A stretch of 64,000 nucleotides of DNA from IMG/VR virus record IMGVR_UViG_3300011008_000003; one strand, 5' to 3'. This DNA is from a virus (lineage: Duplodnaviria > Heunggongvirae > Uroviricota > Caudoviricetes). Below are positions 30,493 through 64,000 of this stretch, piece after piece. Numbering within the stretch: position 1 is the first letter of the stretch; every line of letters starts with the position of its first letter. The translations under genes were made by a program, and so were the position numbers. The notes beneath the pieces are model-generated. The model was not told the DNA's origin. It saw only the letters and a program-made list of their open reading frames with translations, and did no database searches.

Positions 30493-30975
30493 ATGCAGTT
30501 AGATGAAGCAAAGAAAATTTTGGAAGATGCTGGCTATACAGTAATTAATGAAGGTAAAGTTACTCGATTTATTGCTGGATTGGCACTTGCAGCAGGTCTT
30601 TTAACACAGGCACAAGCAAAGGAATTTAATGCTCGTGCTAATTCAGATTATAGTAGCAAGGCAACTACGTCAATTTTTGCAAAAGATATTCAGAAGAGCT
30701 ATAATATGGATTCAAATGTCAATATTACAGCGAACATGGTACAGGCTATTGCAGACCAGGCTTCTAAGAAATTGACTGATAAGATGTTAGCCAATAATCT
30801 TTATGACCTTGATGACATGCTTAAGCTTAATGAATTTAAACAGATTATTGAATTCTATAAACAACTTAAGAGTGCAGATGAAAACCTGGCGAATATGTTC
30901 TCTCGCCGCCTTGATAAGTCGTTAACTAAGTCATTAAGTATCGCTCCGAATATTCAACGATACGCTGGAGTATAA
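30493..30975 (+). CDS. Hypothetical protein with shared LxEA..GY leader and internal signal-peptide-like segment
   Basis: MQLDEAKKILEDAGYTVINE then GKVTRFIAGLALAAGLLTQAQA. Confidence 0.75.
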   Translation: MQLDEAKKILEDAGYTVINEGKVTRFIAGLALAAGLLTQAQAKEFNARANSDYSSKATTSIFAKDIQKSYNMDSNVNITANMVQAIADQASKKLTDKMLANNLYDLDDMLKLNEFKQIIEFYKQLKSADENLANMFSRRLDKSLTKSLSIAPNIQRYAGV

Positions 30976-40219: not shown

Positions 40220-41020
40220 ATGAAGACATTAAAAGATATATTTGACGAAACATTCAAGCCTATTAGTCTTTCAGAATCTGAAGATTTTAATAACTTCTTG
40301 ACAGAAGAGGCTGATTTTACGCCAGTTCCGGTTATTAGCGAAGCTGACGACCCGTTTGGCGGTGATGATACAGCCGGCGGCGGAGACGCTGGTGGAGATG
40401 CAGGCGGAGACCTCGGCGGTGACGCAGGCGGTGATCCGTTTGGCGGAGATGCTGGCGGAGCTGATCCGTTTGGTGGTCCAGATGGTGGTGCCGGTGGCGG
40501 CGGAGCTGGTGGTGGCGCCGGCGGAGAAGGCGGTGCAGCTGCTGGTGAAGATAAGGATAAGGACGAGGATGAAGATACTGTTGATTTCGATGCTCATGAA
40601 GATGACCCGGAATTTAACCAGGGAACAAATAATCCGAACGATGTAACCTTGTCTGATACTCCGGGTGCAAAGGCAGTATTCGATATTGAAAATATCATGA
40701 AGACTGTAACCTCTGTAATCCAGACACTGAGCGAAGACCAGTTGGTTGAAATCGAAAAGGTTAAGGCTTGTATCGAGCTCATCTTTAACGGTAAGCTTCT
40801 GAACGAAGAAGATTTAGAGTTTGAAAACATTAAGAACGCTATATTCTTGGTCAAGAAGATTTCTGCTAAGCTCGATATTAAGGCTAGGGCATATTTGAAC
40901 AGAAAGCTCAAGGAACCGTTGATTAAGAAACGCGATAAGATTAAGCAAGACATTGCTTCTAAGAAGGGTGAACTTAATAATACGCGTGATTTACTAACGA
41001 AACTTGATACAGAAGTTTAA
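40220..41020 (+). CDS. Hypothetical protein with Gly/Asp-rich GGD(A/P) repeat linker
   Basis: DDPFGGDDTAGGGDAGGDAGGDLGGDAGGDPFGGDAGGADPFGG tract; basic helical C-terminus. Confidence 0.8.
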   Translation: MKTLKDIFDETFKPISLSESEDFNNFLTEEADFTPVPVISEADDPFGGDDTAGGGDAGGDAGGDLGGDAGGDPFGGDAGGADPFGGPDGGAGGGGAGGGAGGEGGAAAGEDKDKDEDEDTVDFDAHEDDPEFNQGTNNPNDVTLSDTPGAKAVFDIENIMKTVTSVIQTLSEDQLVEIEKVKACIELIFNGKLLNEEDLEFENIKNAIFLVKKISAKLDIKARAYLNRKLKEPLIKKRDKIKQDIASKKGELNNTRDLLTKLDTEV

Positions 41021-41067: not shown

Positions 41068-41553
41068 TTAGGTTAAATCAAATTCAGGAAGTTCAGACTT
41101 TTCTTCTTCAACAGGAGCTTCAGTTTGTACTTCTACTTGTTTAGCCTTTTTCTTTTTTGTCGGCTTTGTTTCTACAACCGGTGTTTCAACAACTTCTTCA
41201 GCAACAGTTTCTTCGACGACAGGAGCAGTTTCTTCAACTACTGGTTCAACCTGTTCTTGAACAGCTTCTTCCTGTGCCTTCTTGTTAGCCTTGAGCATAT
41301 TGATGAAATTCTGATATTCCTGTTCGAATTCATCAAGATTAACCTGCTGGACAGGGCGTCTACGTGATGAGAATGAACGGAAGTGACGAGCGGCCGGAAT
41401 AACCGGAGCTGGAATTTCCGGGTGAATAAGTTTAAGATGTTCAACGTCTTGCTGAGAATATTGAGGCGTTGTATCTCTACGATAACGTTCTGCAAATTTG
41501 TTTTGCAGATTCTGCTTAAAAAGCATATATTGTGAATTTACATGTCTTGCCAT
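41068..41553 (-). CDS. Hypothetical protein (161 aa), basic N-half and acidic C-half
   Basis: ORF with AAGGA RBS. Confidence 0.75.
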   Translation of the reverse strand: MARHVNSQYMLFKQNLQNKFAERYRRDTTPQYSQQDVEHLKLIHPEIPAPVIPAARHFRSFSSRRRPVQQVNLDEFEQEYQNFINMLKANKKAQEEAVQEQVEPVVEETAPVVEETVAEEVVETPVVETKPTKKKKAKQVEVQTEAPVEEEKSELPEFDLT

Positions 41554-41567
41554 GATTTGTTTTTTCC

Positions 41568-41945
41568 TTATTTTATATGATTCAACATCGTTTCTGGTAC
41601 ATTATGTACTACATATCCAGGAGGATTAGCCTTATTTCCCTTTTCGATTCTTAATGTATAGAGGTTAACTCCGTCGATAGGGTCAGATTGTTCTAATATC
41701 CTATAAAGACATTTATCATCCTTGACATTACTAACGACACATTCATTAATTTCAAACGGGCGTACAGTATAGTCTACAGTATATTCAGAAAATTCTTCTA
41801 CTTCTGGTGGTTCATTACCTAGAGTTTTTGCACGCTTTACACCGTCTGCTAATTTACGAGCTACCCAGTCAGGGCAAGTCTTCGCCTTGATTACGTCTCT
41901 CATAGTTTCCATGAGAATATTTAGTTGCTGGGTTTTTAAATCCAT
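41568..41945 (-). CDS. Hypothetical protein (125 aa)
   Basis: Start overlaps the stop of the 41945-42232 ORF. Confidence 0.75.
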   Translation of the reverse strand: MDLKTQQLNILMETMRDVIKAKTCPDWVARKLADGVKRAKTLGNEPPEVEEFSEYTVDYTVRPFEINECVVSNVKDDKCLYRILEQSDPIDGVNLYTLRIEKGNKANPPGYVVHNVPETMLNHIK

Positions 41946-42232
41946 TAGTGTTTTACCAAACGTTTCTTCTTTTTCTTTTTCTTCTTAATCTGCCTTAACC
42001 AGTATTCAGGATGATGTGCATCTGGAACGCCTTTGTAAAGCGGGTTGATAGAGTACGGAGATCTCTGATAAAGAAGACCCATACGCTGTGGACAACATCC
42101 CTTACAGTCACCGCCGTGAGGAATGCCTTGGTCAAGGCCACAAGGAGAACCAACGCCCATGGTGAAATCTTCATTGAGCTGGACTTCATAGCCGTTTTCT
42201 TCTAAAATTTCTAATGCTTCGTCTAAAGTCAT
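41945..42232 (-). CDS. Small protein carrying a copy of the major capsid N-arm peptide and a poly-Lys tail
   Basis: LNEDFTMGVGSPCGLDQGIPHGGDCKG vs MCP LTEDFTQGVGAPLGLDQGIPHGGDARG; C-terminal IKKKKKKKKRLVKH. Confidence 0.85.
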   Translation of the reverse strand: MTLDEALEILEENGYEVQLNEDFTMGVGSPCGLDQGIPHGGDCKGCCPQRMGLLYQRSPYSINPLYKGVPDAHHPEYWLRQIKKKKKKKKRLVKH

Positions 42233-42251
42233 AATTTATTTATGTTTCCTT

Positions 42252-42524
42252 TTAATAGGCGTCGTATTCACGCCATGATGATTTTAAAAATTCTTCTCTA
42301 GTTCTTGTATATTGTTTTCCATTATATTCTACAATTACATTATTGCCGATAGTTTCTTTTATTACTACCTTGATTGGACAACATGCTTTTACTTCTTTGA
42401 TATGTGTCCAGTATTTACCGCCAACTTCTATATTGAATCCGAATCTATCGAATTCTCGCATATTTCGTTTTTCACATTCTGGACATGGTACCGGTGGCGG
42501 TGGAGGAGGCGGATAATAATGCAT
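42252..42524 (-). CDS. Hypothetical protein (poly-Pro, CPEC, SH3-like C-terminus)
   Basis: ORF in operon. Confidence 0.65.
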   Translation of the reverse strand: MHYYPPPPPPPVPCPECEKRNMREFDRFGFNIEVGGKYWTHIKEVKACCPIKVVIKETIGNNVIVEYNGKQYTRTREEFLKSSWREYDAY

Positions 42525-42525
42525 G

Positions 42526-43065
42526 TTAATGTTTCCTTAAAATTGTGTCCAACTCATCGTTGAGCCTGTGAATGATATACTGTTTCGATAAGCTTTCGGT
42601 ATTGGTAAGGCAGTTCTGAAGTCGAATATCACCCATTGCACTGTTCAGCCAGTTAACTGACATGAGACAAGACATTCTGGGTTTCAGCCATTCTCTAAGC
42701 TTGAACATCAAGAGGTCGAGATTGGAAATTGCGTCTTCTTCTTGCTGGTTTACCGGATTTCTTACAAGCTTACCGTTTTTATCGATAAGACCAAGTTTGA
42801 AAGCTTTGGTTTTCGATGGAATTGTAGTAATCGATTTTAAAAATATGTAGACAAGAATATTGTCTATTGTCCTGTTATGATTTGTGAGGCTTATTTTCTT
42901 ATTTTTGATTTTAAGAGATTTGACAGTCTTACGTGCTTCAGTAAGAATGTTATCTGCTTCAAAATAATCAGAAATCGTCTCTGCGTTATTCACGAGACGA
43001 GAAAGCCCTTTGACAGGGTTTGGATCTTCAAGAGAATAGTAGAATCGTTCCCATAGTTTTTCCAT
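42526..43065 (-). CDS. Conserved T4-like hypothetical protein
   Basis: TKAFKLGLIDKNGKLVR..EEDAISNLDLLMFKLREWL motif, which I recall from T4-like phage hypotheticals; late promoter 4 nt upstream. Confidence 0.65.
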   Translation of the reverse strand: MEKLWERFYYSLEDPNPVKGLSRLVNNAETISDYFEADNILTEARKTVKSLKIKNKKISLTNHNRTIDNILVYIFLKSITTIPSKTKAFKLGLIDKNGKLVRNPVNQQEEDAISNLDLLMFKLREWLKPRMSCLMSVNWLNSAMGDIRLQNCLTNTESLSKQYIIHRLNDELDTILRKH

Positions 43066-43068
43066 ACA

Positions 43069-43082
43069 TTATTTATAAATAA
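43069..43082. promoter_or_regulatory. Palindromic bidirectional late promoter TTATTTATAAATAA
   Basis: Perfect palindrome between divergent genes 43065 and 43090. Confidence 0.8.
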
Positions 43083-50200: not shown

Positions 50201-51826
50201 GTGAATTTAAATTTTCTTAATCCATTTAGTAGCAGCTTCTTAAAAACTTCGCCGGAACACAGTGAAATCCGTGCAAGGGAGGCAGCTCGTAACTCATACG
50301 GTAAAATCGAAGACACCATTGACTGGTCTGCTTTGTCAAACGCCTACGGGAATACATTTGATGATCCCGCTAATCCGCGAGACACAACCCAGATTTATTT
50401 TGACCAAATTTATATAAACAAGTGGCAGAAGATTAGCTGGTATCGTTCCATGGCGATGTACCCGCTTATCGGTAAAGGTTTGAATATTATTACCGACGAA
50501 GCAGTTTGCCCAGACGCACTTGGTAATGTCGCAATGTTTGACATCAAGGAACCGTATAAGCAGAAGTTTACTGCTACAGAATATGCAACCTTGAAGATGG
50601 AATTTGATTATATTGTTGAATGTGTATTTGGACAGGAAAATATATGGAATTTGTTCCATAAGTGGTTACAGGATGCCGAACTCTTTTTGGAAATTGCGTT
50701 GAATGACAATGGAGATAAAGTGGTCGGCATTAATACATTGGCACCTTATGCGATGTTGGTCATTTATGACAGGGATTCCGATAATATTAACGGATTTATC
50801 GAAAATGTAAACTATCTTAATCAGGCACAGATACAAGACAAGAATACTGAAATTCGTCGTTTCTTGCCGAACCAGATTGCATATGTTCGTTATCCGATTA
50901 CTTGGAATAACCGTAATGACGTTCGCGGACATTTGGAACGTTCTATTCGACCGTTGAACCAGCTTAGAAATATTGAAGATGCATTGACGGTTTATCGTAT
51001 TACTCGTGCAACTGAACACCGTGTATTTAACATTTATACTGGTCGTCGTCCGCCTGACAAGGCTGCTGCTTATGTTCAGGAAGTTCGTAATAAGTATCGT
51101 AAGAATTTGACTCTCGATAATACTACTGGTATGGTCAATGCAGTCAAGAATACTCAGGCTATGACTGAAGACTTCTTCTTCTCGAAGGACGACTCTGGCC
51201 AGCAGTCCTCTGTTGAAACATTTGCTTCCGGTTCTACATTTGACGGTCAGATTCAAGACCTTTATATGTTCCAGAAGATGGTTATGGACGGTATGTTTAT
51301 TCCGCAAAATCGTTGGAAGTCTGATGAACTTAGCGGTGCAAATTATAATCAGGGTATTGAATCTGCAAACCTTGAAGAAGTCGCATTCCAGCGTTGCTGC
51401 CGTCGTCTTCGTAGGGCTTTTGCTGATGTAATTAGGCAGGTATTCCTTGTTCATCTTCGTGTTCGTGGATATAAGGAAAAGTTCCTCGATAAGGCAATCT
51501 ATAATATCGATCTTCATCCGGCAACTGACTTCGAACGTATGCGTGACCTTGCTCTTGCAGAAAAACGTGGTTCTGTTCTTTCTATGCTTTCTCAGTTCTT
51601 GCCGACGACAACGAATATTAAGCCGGGTAGTGAAGAACTTGCTCCGTTGTTCTCTAAGCAATACTTCATGGAAAAGATTCTTGGTATGTCCACACAGGAT
51701 ATTCTTATGAATAATAAGATGCTTGAACAGGAAATCAAGCAGATGAATGAAGAAGCTGAAGCCGCAGCTGCTGCAGGTGGCGGAGAAGGTGAAAATCCTG
51801 ATGAAGGCGGAGACTTAGGATTTTAA
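50201..51826 (+). CDS. 20: Portal protein (T4 gp20-like), GTG start
   Basis: YRSMAMYP.I..G..II.DEAV, LERSIRPLNQLRNIEDALTVYRITRATEHRVFNIYTG, MTEDFFF. Confidence 0.95.
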   Translation: MNLNFLNPFSSSFLKTSPEHSEIRAREAARNSYGKIEDTIDWSALSNAYGNTFDDPANPRDTTQIYFDQIYINKWQKISWYRSMAMYPLIGKGLNIITDEAVCPDALGNVAMFDIKEPYKQKFTATEYATLKMEFDYIVECVFGQENIWNLFHKWLQDAELFLEIALNDNGDKVVGINTLAPYAMLVIYDRDSDNINGFIENVNYLNQAQIQDKNTEIRRFLPNQIAYVRYPITWNNRNDVRGHLERSIRPLNQLRNIEDALTVYRITRATEHRVFNIYTGRRPPDKAAAYVQEVRNKYRKNLTLDNTTGMVNAVKNTQAMTEDFFFSKDDSGQQSSVETFASGSTFDGQIQDLYMFQKMVMDGMFIPQNRWKSDELSGANYNQGIESANLEEVAFQRCCRRLRRAFADVIRQVFLVHLRVRGYKEKFLDKAIYNIDLHPATDFERMRDLALAEKRGSVLSMLSQFLPTTTNIKPGSEELAPLFSKQYFMEKILGMSTQDILMNNKMLEQEIKQMNEEAEAAAAAGGGEGENPDEGGDLGF

Positions 51827-51838
51827 TAATTAGGAGTA

Positions 51839-52174
51839 ATGATGTTTGAAGCAATAAATCAAAAATATAAAAAGCAACGTATGCTGGCAGAAGCGAAAGA
51901 ACTGTTAAAAGAAAACGGTTATACGCTTTTGCTGGAAACTCCAGTAGAAAAATTTGAAGATACTGAAAGCAAACAATTTCTTCTTGACGTTATAGACAAT
52001 TTGGAAACATATGGTTATACAGAAAAAGAAGAAATTGACCATTTAGATAGTCTTAAAGGATATATCTGGAATGAGTTGAATAAATTGGCAAGAAGCTTTA
52101 GTATTCAGAAAATAATTCAATATCTAGCTAGATTAGGATTATATCATGATAATGGAGCTGCTCAGCATGCATAA
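51839..52174 (+). CDS. Hypothetical protein with shared LxEA..GY leader
   Basis: MLAEAKELLKENGYTLLLET; GGAG RBS. Confidence 0.75.
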   Translation: MMFEAINQKYKKQRMLAEAKELLKENGYTLLLETPVEKFEDTESKQFLLDVIDNLETYGYTEKEEIDHLDSLKGYIWNELNKLARSFSIQKIIQYLARLGLYHDNGAAQHA

Positions 52175-61602: not shown

Positions 61603-62166
61603 ATGACACTTTATGAAGCAAAACAGCTAGTTGAACGTGCGGGCTATTCCGTCGTCAAGAAGAATCACGAAGTTACTAAGAAAGACTTCGTTACAAAGAA
61701 ATACGACAAGGATTCTGTCGAAATCGATGATAATCATGATATTGTGGTAAAGAAGAAGCAGCGTAAGCTTGCTCGTAAGTGCCCTTGCTGTGGTCGTTCA
61801 CATTGTATTTGTTCTAGTGCGGTTAAGGAAGCTCTTGCCGTTGCTGAAAAGGCTGGTTTCCAGGTTATTTCTGAACGTATTGGTGACAGCGCTGGTACGA
61901 AGCTTTCTGAAGTCTGCGAAAAGTGGCTCAGAAACGCATTTTTTGAAAAGGTTGCAAATGCTGCATCTCTCGAAGTAGCAAAGGCACAGTTCCTTGAAGA
62001 CGTTTCCAAGCTTGTCGACCATGGTGTTTCTGGTCCGAAATACAATGAAATCTGTTTTCACATAGACGAAAGCCCAAATCTCAATAAGACCTTGCTCTAT
62101 ATTGCAGGCCTTATGCAGACTGCTCAGGGACGTGGTTTGCGCCGTGACCCTCGCCGTGGCTGGTAA
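61603..62166 (+). CDS. Hypothetical protein with two copies of the LxEA..GY leader and a Cys cluster
   Basis: MTLYEAKQLVERAGYSVV and VKEALAVAEKAGFQVISE flank KCPCCGRSHCIC. Confidence 0.75.
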   Translation: MTLYEAKQLVERAGYSVVKKNHEVTKKDFVTKKYDKDSVEIDDNHDIVVKKKQRKLARKCPCCGRSHCICSSAVKEALAVAEKAGFQVISERIGDSAGTKLSEVCEKWLRNAFFEKVANAASLEVAKAQFLEDVSKLVDHGVSGPKYNEICFHIDESPNLNKTLLYIAGLMQTAQGRGLRRDPRRGW

Positions 62167-63353: not shown

Positions 63354-64000
63354 ATGAAAATTACGAAATCTCAGGCCGGTATGATGGACCGTTGGAGCCA
63401 GGCTCCGAAGGGCCTCTCAGTCGCTGGCATCAAGGACAATCTCGTCCGTTATAATACTGCACGTCTTCTTGAAAACCAGCAGACTAAGAACCTCGGTACT
63501 GAACTGTTGACTGAAGACTTCACTCAGGGTGTTGGTGCTCCGCTCGGTCTCGACCAGGGTATTCCTCATGGTGGTGACGCTAGGGGTGTGTTCGCTCCGA
63601 TTTCTCTTGCCCTCGTCCGCCGCGTGTTCCCGCAGCTCTTCGCTAACGTCCTCGTTGGTGTTCAGCCGTTGACTGGCCCGGTTGGCTTGGCATTCGCCCT
63701 CCGTTACATTTACAAGACCAATAACCCGAACGAACTCGTTGAAGCCGCATGGAAGGCAGTTCCGCGCTTCTCTGGCTTTACTGGTTCTACCGCCAACAAC
63801 GACGGTGAATGGGATGCAGGTACTGGTGTTGATACTCAGTCTGCAGAAGGTTGGAAGATCACTGGCCCGACGTTTGGTTCTGATGACCCGTCTGTAAGCC
63901 GTAAGATGCCGGAAATCGGCCTTATGCTCAGCCGTCAGTCTATCGTTGCTAAGACTCGTAAGCTCGCTGCTTCCTTCTCTCTCGAATCTGCTGCCGACAT
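63354..64000 (+). CDS. 23: Major capsid protein (T4 gp23-like), 5' partial in window
   Basis: Manual translation MKITKSQAG...ARLLENQ...LVRRVFPQLFANVLVGVQPLTGPVGLAFALRY...IVAKTRKLAASFSLESA; runs off the window end. Confidence 0.96.
   Translation, partial: MKITKSQAGMMDRWSQAPKGLSVAGIKDNLVRYNTARLLENQQTKNLGTELLTEDFTQGVGAPLGLDQGIPHGGDARGVFAPISLALVRRVFPQLFANVLVGVQPLTGPVGLAFALRYIYKTNNPNELVEAAWKAVPRFSGFTGSTANNDGEWDAGTGVDTQSAEGWKITGPTFGSDDPSVSRKMPEIGLMLSRQSIVAKTRKLAASFSLESAAD

Follow-up and report, generated by a model that had tools for sequence, protein, structure and literature searches.

The 64,000-nucleotide stretch of DNA analyzed here (IMG/VR virus record IMGVR_UViG_3300011008_000003, Caudoviricetes; hereafter the window) belongs to a rumen T4-like megaphage with a genome of roughly 415 kb. 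A small open reading frame (ORF) on its minus strand, at positions 41945..42232 with an ATG at 42232, encodes a protein of 95 amino acids (aa) that copies a segment of the phage's own major capsid protein, gp23. This mimic gene is real, conserved and under purifying selection. The explanation that we favor, with confidence somewhat above even, is that its product would be a basic peptide that is loaded into the prohead, trimmed by a gp21-type protease and able to use the contacts of the capsid N-terminus, and that the gene is the rumen-megaphage counterpart of the T4 gene 61.1 family.

The gp23 gene lies at 63354..63998 on the plus strand, where it is open at its 3' side at the window end and encodes the N-terminal 215 aa (Pfam Gp23, E value 9e-21) of a protein that is 439 aa at full length in a relative. 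A BLASTP comparison of the small protein with the window gp23 gave 31/73 identities (E 2e-15), and in the core of this match residues 19-45 align with gp23 residues 52-78 at 21 of 27 positions, the same ORF and the same identity that a sequence-only reading of the window had reported. The post-cut stretch alone (residues 22-47) is identical at 19 of 26 positions, with 21/27 obtained when the L-x-E is counted. Both matches begin at this [L]-x-E, as had also been claimed, in the form LNE|DF in the small protein and LTE|DF in gp23. The match to gp23 is unique within the window as judged from a six-frame scan and shuffling; the second-best 27-mer in the six-frame translation reached 9/27 versus 21/27 for gp23, and the best score of 200 shuffled small-protein queries never exceeded 11/27. 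At the DNA level the two segments share 60/90 nucleotides, and the 21 identical residues use the same codon in 9 cases and a different codon in 12. These synonymous differences indicate conservation at the protein level and exclude a recent DNA copy, which bears out the sequence-only reading. Family-against-family alignment with hhalign equates small-protein residues 17-84 with gp23 residues 51-121 (probability 99.2, E 3.6e-19), so that both this and the BLASTP result support the earlier claim that the segment copies the capsid cleavage junction together with the mature N-terminus.

The small protein is made up of a leader, a cut site, the capsid N-terminus copy and poly-Lys, all encoded on the minus strand within 41945..42232. 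The acidic leader (residues 1-21, 42170..42232, isoelectric point (pI) 4.05) ends in L-N-E, a predicted gp21-type cleavage site. It is followed by the copy of the mature gp23 N-terminus (residues 22-47, 42092..42169), by a decayed equivalent of the gp23 N-arm that aligns to gp23 about 81-121 (residues 48-82, 41987..42091) and by a poly-Lys tract with a short C-terminal end (residues 83-95, 41948..41986). As computed from the sequence, the predicted mature protein would have 74 residues, a mass of 8.4 kDa and a pI of 9.8. Compared with the gp23/gp24 family (PF07068, HK97 fold), the small protein is homologous to gp23 residues 51-121 but has none of the HK97-fold body (P, A, E-loop and I domains), and it has no Pfam match, Gp23 PF07068 included. 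No full-length gp24-like paralogue occurs in three complete or nearly complete (98-100%) relatives. Extra Cys residues and a poly-Lys tail had been pointed out previously; both are present, but the Cys residues are not conserved. Their positions vary among homologues, and the idea of zinc binding was therefore dropped. A programmed frameshift in the Lys-coding tract that would join the downstream ORF was likewise rejected, since there is no A_AAA_AAG heptamer and the -1 frame stops before the next gene.

The gp23 cut site and the first 26 residues of the predicted mature protein (63507..63593, plus strand) are invariant or nearly so across 13 gp23 clade representatives. In the window gp23, 33 residues separate L-T-E from a conserved (L)VRR motif, and in T4, where the site is LTE|AEIGG (after residue 65), the distance is 34 residues. 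This near-equal spacing places the copied 26 residues at the position of the T4 "N-fist", which comprises the first 25 residues of processed gp23 (gp23*) and touches four subunits in the mature shell (PMC9958956, PMC9546572). In the unexpanded T4 head the segment is internal, disordered and probably in contact with the scaffolding core, and it moves to the outer capsid surface upon expansion (PMC9958956, PMC9546572). The T4 head-length mutations A66D, A94V and G97S map to the gp23 N-terminal segment (PMC9546572). By alignment, the copied piece is better called a cut junction plus N-fist plus decayed N-arm than an "arm". The sequence-only reading had envisaged a mimic of the capsid arm that could dock inside the shell, and the functions it suggested (DNA tether, assembly chaperone, size regulator or protease decoy) are conjectural. 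That the protein copies the capsid stands, but as the T4 N-fist is outside after expansion, an inside location is not a safe assumption. An AlphaFold2 (AF2) model of gp23 built from a 13-row alignment had a predicted local distance difference test (pLDDT) score of 32.

Homologues of the small protein were drawn from a metagenomic set of 5.8 billion proteins and from IMG/VR, and comprise 22 metagenomic clusters in the former and 89 stretches matching the family patterns in the latter. Searches of the GenBank cultured-phage collection with the small ORF (megablast, tblastn) gave no match, and the mimic locus is absent from the nearest record (G001). Related IMG/VR genomes with terminal repeats are 415,750 and 424,163 bp in length. 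The peptide occurs in all gp23 clades of the megaphage group, whose members are 58-99% identical to the window gp23, and in non-capsid proteins. Each related genome holds exactly two carriers, gp23 and one small protein, a count that covered two complete genomes with terminal repeats and others that are 98%, 70% and 18% complete. The 415,750-bp relative also has weak partial matches to the C-terminal half of gp23 at 148211-149745 and 259226-259369; these ORFs of about 220 aa, with 30% identity over gp23 273-382, are probably half-size capsid paralogues. A Peptidase_S77 (gp21) protease was found in 5/5 related records searched (E 1e-29 to 1e-36 in the complete relatives), encoded a few kb downstream of gp23 and thus just past the window end.

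Co-conservation in related genomes and the ratio of nonsynonymous to synonymous substitution (dN/dS) had both been proposed as checks by the sequence-only reading. The first is answered by the two carriers per genome and the second by clear constraint: among 11 orthologues with 61 alignable codons, the median dN/dS is 0.08, with 0.06 in the copied segment and 0.12 in the rest, while the synonymous rate (dS) is about 1.3 or saturated. The copy of the gp23 N-terminus is the most conserved part of the family, the invariant residues being E21, D22, F23, V27, G28, P30, G32, D34, G36, I37 and P38. The [LIVM]-x-E site is invariant across all small-protein homologues, and the reading frame is unbroken in all of them.

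Across all clades the non-capsid carriers maintain a fixed order, [LIVM]-x-E | DF..GVG.P.G.DQGIP..GD | spacer | polybasic tract. Leaders range from 8 to 138 aa and the spacer is short, often x-[RYK]-M-[GD]. No non-capsid carrier lacks the polybasic tract, regardless of which leader or C-terminal domain it has, and what follows the tract is variable or missing altogether. The window version is the minimal form of the family, with no C-terminal domain after the Lys tract. Differing C-terminal domains follow poly-Lys in relatives L001, L006, L009, L019, L023, L024, L070, L079 and L080; the types seen in close relatives include an additional 45 aa that is beta-rich, an additional 100 aa that is helical, and a 357-aa form. 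Pfam matches of these domains have best E values of 0.005-0.022, below curated cut-offs and not significant, among them a weak SWIM zinc-finger match in one relative (E 0.022). The C-terminal extensions are not homologous to the 125-aa ORF downstream, a relationship that was considered and rejected. Judged from these sequences, the variation looks like the swapping of cargo on a constant N-terminal module. One further copy of the peptide (..FGAPLGADQGIPHS..) at about 109213-109320 of record G014 (L174) has no upstream in-frame Met, with stops just before it. It lies close to the end of a contig and could be a member of the L025-type subfamily that is degenerate or mis-assembled.

The sequence-only reading knew of no such T4-like protein. 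This is no longer tenable, as T4 gene 61.1 has the same layout and the megaphage locus is tied to the gp61.1 family through a neighboring gene. T4 gp61.1 is a "hypothetical protein" of 54 aa, with a leader (MKTFKEFIKE, ending I-K-E) that resembles a capsid targeting sequence (CTS), followed by a stretch that matches T4 gp23 residues 57-93, the cut site and N-fist, at 17/37 positions (E 6e-9) and then by KKKK. It matches phrog_1823 (3e-33) and the C-terminal third of phrog_2086 (1e-15). Gene 61.1 was listed by Nolan et al. (2006) among conserved ORFs without function (PMC1524935), and our literature search found no published description of capsid mimicry by gp61.1.

The neighboring gene, located two genes upstream of the small ORF at 42526..43065 on the minus strand, encodes a 179-aa protein that we term domain X. 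In PHROG it matches phrog_18642 (5e-9) and, over positions 5-69 in the N-terminal part, phrog_2086 (1.5e-5). BLASTP aligns it with the protein at the 61.1 position of Acinetobacter phage AB1I1M-1 (25/83, E 2e-10), and tblastn finds a match in Acinetobacter phage Ac42 in a protein annotated 61.1. In both Ac42 and AB1I1M-1 the 61.1-position protein consists of domain X fused to an L-x-E, a copy of the phage's own gp23 N-fist and a basic tail; for example, Ac42 gp61.1 matches its own gp23 64-94 at 14/31 positions. The AF2 model of domain X is all-helical (pLDDT 79.5). It has no match in the PDB at E <= 0.001 and an Atlas search returned unnamed viral clusters only, and its top match among the viral models of BFVD is RB69ORF032c (probability 0.97). 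This ORF overlaps the start of RB69 gp61.1 by 4 nt (L194, RB69 NC_004928, 3318-3784) and represents the N-terminal half of domain X; the remaining half is in RB69 gp61.1, together with the cut site, the copy of the N-fist and a basic tail. The long form of gp61.1 is thus split in RB69 (ORF032c plus gp61.1) and fused in Ac42, with T4 having the short CTS form only; the two RB69 ORFs may reflect a frameshift or may truly be separate genes. In Melnitz (Kyanoviridae) a domain X ORF is directly followed by an ORF with I-K-T-E, a gp23-like stretch and KKKEKK, which matches Melnitz gp23 at the predicted cut site at 8/13 positions, a weak match (E 0.019). In most megaphage loci with enough flanking sequence, distant clades included, the domain X ORF precedes the mimic gene by 0.5-2.4 kb, and a motif scan did not pick domain X up in L070/L071/L074/L080-type loci.

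Domain X is itself a family of 549 representative clusters, and only 6 of the top 150 representatives have a downstream polybasic tract in the same chain; it is therefore a wider family in which fusion to a mimic is exceptional. T4 gp61.2 was considered as a relative of domain X and has no relation to it. No second gp23 N-terminal copy was found in cyanophage S-RIM2 and its relatives (466 records, 466 places, E <= 10), by a search too insensitive to exclude a copy of T4 grade.

Taken side by side, T4 gp61.1 and the long forms (phrog_2086) are built like the megaphage protein: a leader or N-terminal domain that terminates in [LI]-x-E is followed by a segment copied from the gp23 of the same phage, reaching from the cut site to the end of the N-fist, and by a Lys/Arg-rich tract. 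The N-terminal domain X of the long forms is what is encoded two genes upstream of the window ORF. There are also differences. The leader of the window protein is a 21-aa acidic motif that is neither the CTS-like MKTFKEFIKE nor a fused domain X; its copy is closer to gp23 (21/27 versus 17/37) and reaches into the N-arm; its Lys run is longer, with variable C-terminal domains added in megaphage relatives; and its gene is located among late structural genes, whereas the T4 gene is beside primase gene 61.

A further feature of these proteins is that each mimic scores best on the gp23 of its own lineage in every lineage examined. In a score matrix, T-even mimics reached 54-65 on T-even gp23 and 12 or less elsewhere, the Melnitz mimic 28 on its own gp23 and 6 or less elsewhere, and megaphage mimics 108-120 within their own clade, 87-94 against gp23 of the sister clade and at most 7 on any other gp23. 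Among the megaphages, residues specific to a clade (T at position 10, L/A at 12 and G/A at 24) agree between the gp23 and mimic of the same or matching clade. Since domain X is an independent sign that the loci have a common origin, the resemblance of each mimic to its own gp23 needs explaining: the mimic either co-evolves with gp23 or is repeatedly refreshed from it. For the window, the synonymous differences argue against a recent refresh.

From these observations we propose the following series of events. A late protein of three parts, namely an acidic leader with an L-x-E, a stretch that repeats the capsid protein of the same phage from its cleavage site through about 26 mature residues and continues as a decayed N-arm, and a polybasic tract, would enter the assembling prohead by way of its leader, of contacts of the gp23 N-terminus kind with the scaffolding core, or of both. 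A gp21-like protease would then cut the precursor at LNE|DF together with gp23, which would leave a basic peptide of 74 residues (pI 9.8) with a free N-terminus of the mature-gp23 kind. This peptide could occupy sites that recognize the capsid N-terminus, either those of the core in the unexpanded head or those of the lattice once the head has expanded, with the Lys tract binding acidic core proteins or packaged DNA. Additionally, as the same module carries variable C-terminal domains in relatives, it may also serve as a handle for loading or anchoring cargo. The small protein is probably head-associated, and its entry into the prohead, its cleavage, its docking and any effect on assembly are inferred. 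A complex prediction with two copies of gp23 81-439 and the mature small protein had a score of 0.00, with a partner pLDDT of 30, and is evidence neither way.

Several observations weigh against this explanation or against its connection to gp61.1. BLASTP detects no similarity between the small ORF and T4 gp61.1, and the small ORF has no match in PHROG at E <= 0.01; consequently, the link rests on architecture and on the domain X neighbor. Gene 61.1 is placed immediately upstream of primase gene 61, but no primase gene was found near the small ORF in the Pfam and PHROG annotation of the window. The leader differs from the T4 CTS. Within the megaphages, the residue tracking comprises about three independent changes and is suggestive only. 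Finally, no extra density was assigned to gp61.1 in cryo-electron microscopy (cryo-EM) of the T4 head (PMC9958956, PMC9546572), which argues against a stable, symmetric lattice component of high occupancy, at least in T4.

A broader version of the proposal applies to the T4 superfamily as a whole (T-even, Acinetobacter, Kyanoviridae-like and rumen megaphages). It states that the processed peptide has to resemble the capsid N-terminus of its own phage since both dock at the same place, and that from there the peptide governs one step in the assembly of the head, in its expansion or in the anchoring of DNA. We offer this only as a tentative generalization that may well prove wrong. Docking could then be on the scaffolding core or at empty inter-capsomer N-fist sites, for example at the portal vertex, and the peptide would be an unrecognized component of the T4 head pathway that works with domain X. 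A purely conceptual precedent is provided by phage P1, in which cryo-EM shows pairs of small internal proteins, DarA-Hdf, that sit on the capsid wall at penton-hexon junctions and bind DNA (PMC12810830). There is no relation to these proteins in sequence or architecture, and binding that was visualized there is conjecture here.

Among other explanations, it is possible but improbable that the protein is a packaged and injected internal protein of the T4 IPI/IPII/IPIII type, in which the module is a loading and retention handle only and the function is delivery into the host with the DNA, for anti-defense or takeover, mainly by means of the variable C-terminal domains. T4 internal proteins do have a short acidic or amphipathic leader ending in [LI]-x-E and a basic mature part (PMC9026906), and their C-terminal content varies between relatives much as close relatives here have exchanged what follows the Lys tract (no C-terminal domain, +45 aa, +100 aa and others), in the manner of hypervariable internal-protein loci. 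However, the window version is free of cargo at 95 aa and yet under strong purifying selection, conservation peaks in the capsid copy and not at the C-terminus, and T4 gp61.1 is also without cargo. Moreover, the T4 CTS needs only about 10 residues (PMC9026906), so a mere handle leaves the resemblance to own gp23 unexplained. The T4 internal proteins also differ in that they contain no copy of the capsid protein, their CTS is of about 10 residues and of another sequence, and their packaging and cleavage have been demonstrated experimentally, whereas those of the window protein are proposed. The 21-aa acidic leader is not a CTS of the MKTYQEFIAE type (about 10 residues), and none of the 8-15-aa leaders found in some relatives is closely like that of T4.

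We think it quite unlikely that the protein acts as a protease decoy or timer, an abundant competing substrate with the best possible capsid-like cleavage context that would delay or buffer gp21 activity or shield the phage from host sensing of the prohead protease. It is true that in all lineages the copy has the P3 residue of the cut site as its very first residue. It is also true that host enzymes of the cyclic oligonucleotide-based antiphage signaling system (CBASS) are activated by T4-type prohead protease cleavage (preprint PMC12991175), so this protease activity is under surveillance. However, other predicted substrates in the window that have a like leader differ after the cut, which indicates that the protease needs no such residues, and a decoy role would leave unexplained both the invariance of the polybasic tract and the conservation of 26 residues past the cut. 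Competition would also require very high expression, as gp23 itself is present in thousands of copies.

Doubtful in a still higher degree is a role as regulator of capsid size or geometry, in which the protein would compete with the gp23 N-terminal segment for core contacts and tune shell curvature, as might be relevant to the very large head needed for about 415 kb. The T4 substitutions A66D, A94V and G97S do alter head length from the equivalent gp23 segment, with core contact suspected (PMC9546572), and every genome in which this particular peptide occurs is T4-like and very large. However, the same kind of protein occurs in T4 and Acinetobacter phages with ordinary 168-kb genomes and is therefore not specific to giant heads, and there is no dosage or structural support for such a role. 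Lastly, although only a 70-residue piece of gp23 can be aligned, with strong divergence after the first 26 mature residues, a functionless, decaying remnant of a partial gp23 duplication is effectively refuted by a dN/dS of 0.08 with saturated dS, by an intact frame in all homologues, and by a three-gene module kept in all clades with like architecture in distant T4-like lineages.

That three-gene module consists, in the megaphages, of domain X, an ORF of 90 aa that we term mid90, and the mimic. The mid90 ORF (42252..42524, minus strand) lies directly upstream of the mimic gene, does so in all megaphage clades (tblastn E 1e-8 to 1e-46), and encodes a run of seven prolines and Cys pairs (CPEC...CC). 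It has no Pfam or PHROG family and does not resemble the ORFs that precede the long-form 61.1 genes in Acinetobacter phages. The T4 late-promoter box TATAAATA occurs 33 times in the window versus 8.8 expected, a 3.7-fold enrichment, and is found ahead of gp23, the scaffold gene and the small-ORF operon. An exact copy at 43070..43077 (minus strand), 4 nt before the domain X start (ATG 43065), is the likely start of the operon, and a late-promoter-like box with one mismatch to that of T4, CATAAATA, is located at 42237..42244 (minus strand), 4 nt before the ATG of the small ORF. TATAAATA is often just 4 nt ahead of start codons, a gap that leaves no room for a Shine-Dalgarno sequence. Of the words sampled from 41400-42700, 22-34% were present in sheep and bovine gut RNA runs, a figure that reports word presence only and has no bearing on transcription.

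The surroundings of the small ORF include unnamed small ORFs, a head-closure protein, baseplate genes and the portal gene (50450-51826), and a T4-type scaffold gene (PF25623) is located just upstream of gp23. A leader similar to that of the small protein (..EA..LLE..GY.V..), followed by [LI]-x-E, is present in three other plus-strand ORFs, at 30493-30975, 51839-52174 and 61603-62166. One of these directly follows the portal gene, which is the position of gp67/gp68 in T4, and one directly precedes the scaffold gene and carries the motif twice. None has a Pfam or PHROG family, and all three are candidate prohead-core or packaged proteins. Next to the operon are two very acidic ORFs with a composition like that of scaffolding or internal head proteins: 40220-41020 (plus strand) has Gly/Asp repeats of the GGDAGGD type, and 41068-41553 (minus strand) is E/V/T-rich with PVVEET repeats and a terminal KKKK patch. 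The latter shares the minus-strand operon with the mimic and is conserved in closer clades.

Assembly of the T4 head is among the best-studied assembly pathways, and yet a conserved small protein that copies the capsid protein has no described function within it. The mimic is a real conserved peptide of the known but uncharacterized gp61.1 kind and not a one-off curiosity, and the conservation of this kind spans T4 and phages with capsid protein identity as low as about 33%, the level that the window gp23 shows toward those of cyanophages and other T4-like phages. What our analysis adds is a deep-branching megaphage lineage with by far the closest gp23 copy, together with measures of selection, the module of three genes, and the evidence from domain X, in its split, fused and adjacent forms, that ties the mimic to gp61.1. 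The megaphage version is the clearest example, with 21/27 identity, strong selection, a conserved gene module and modular C-terminal cargo, and the domain X link makes the question directly testable by T4 genetics and structural work. Docking of the peptide at capsid N-terminus sites, if it occurs, would have implications for the control of shell-core contacts, of expansion and of head size, and the peptide could supply a natural handle for loading proteins into T4-type heads.

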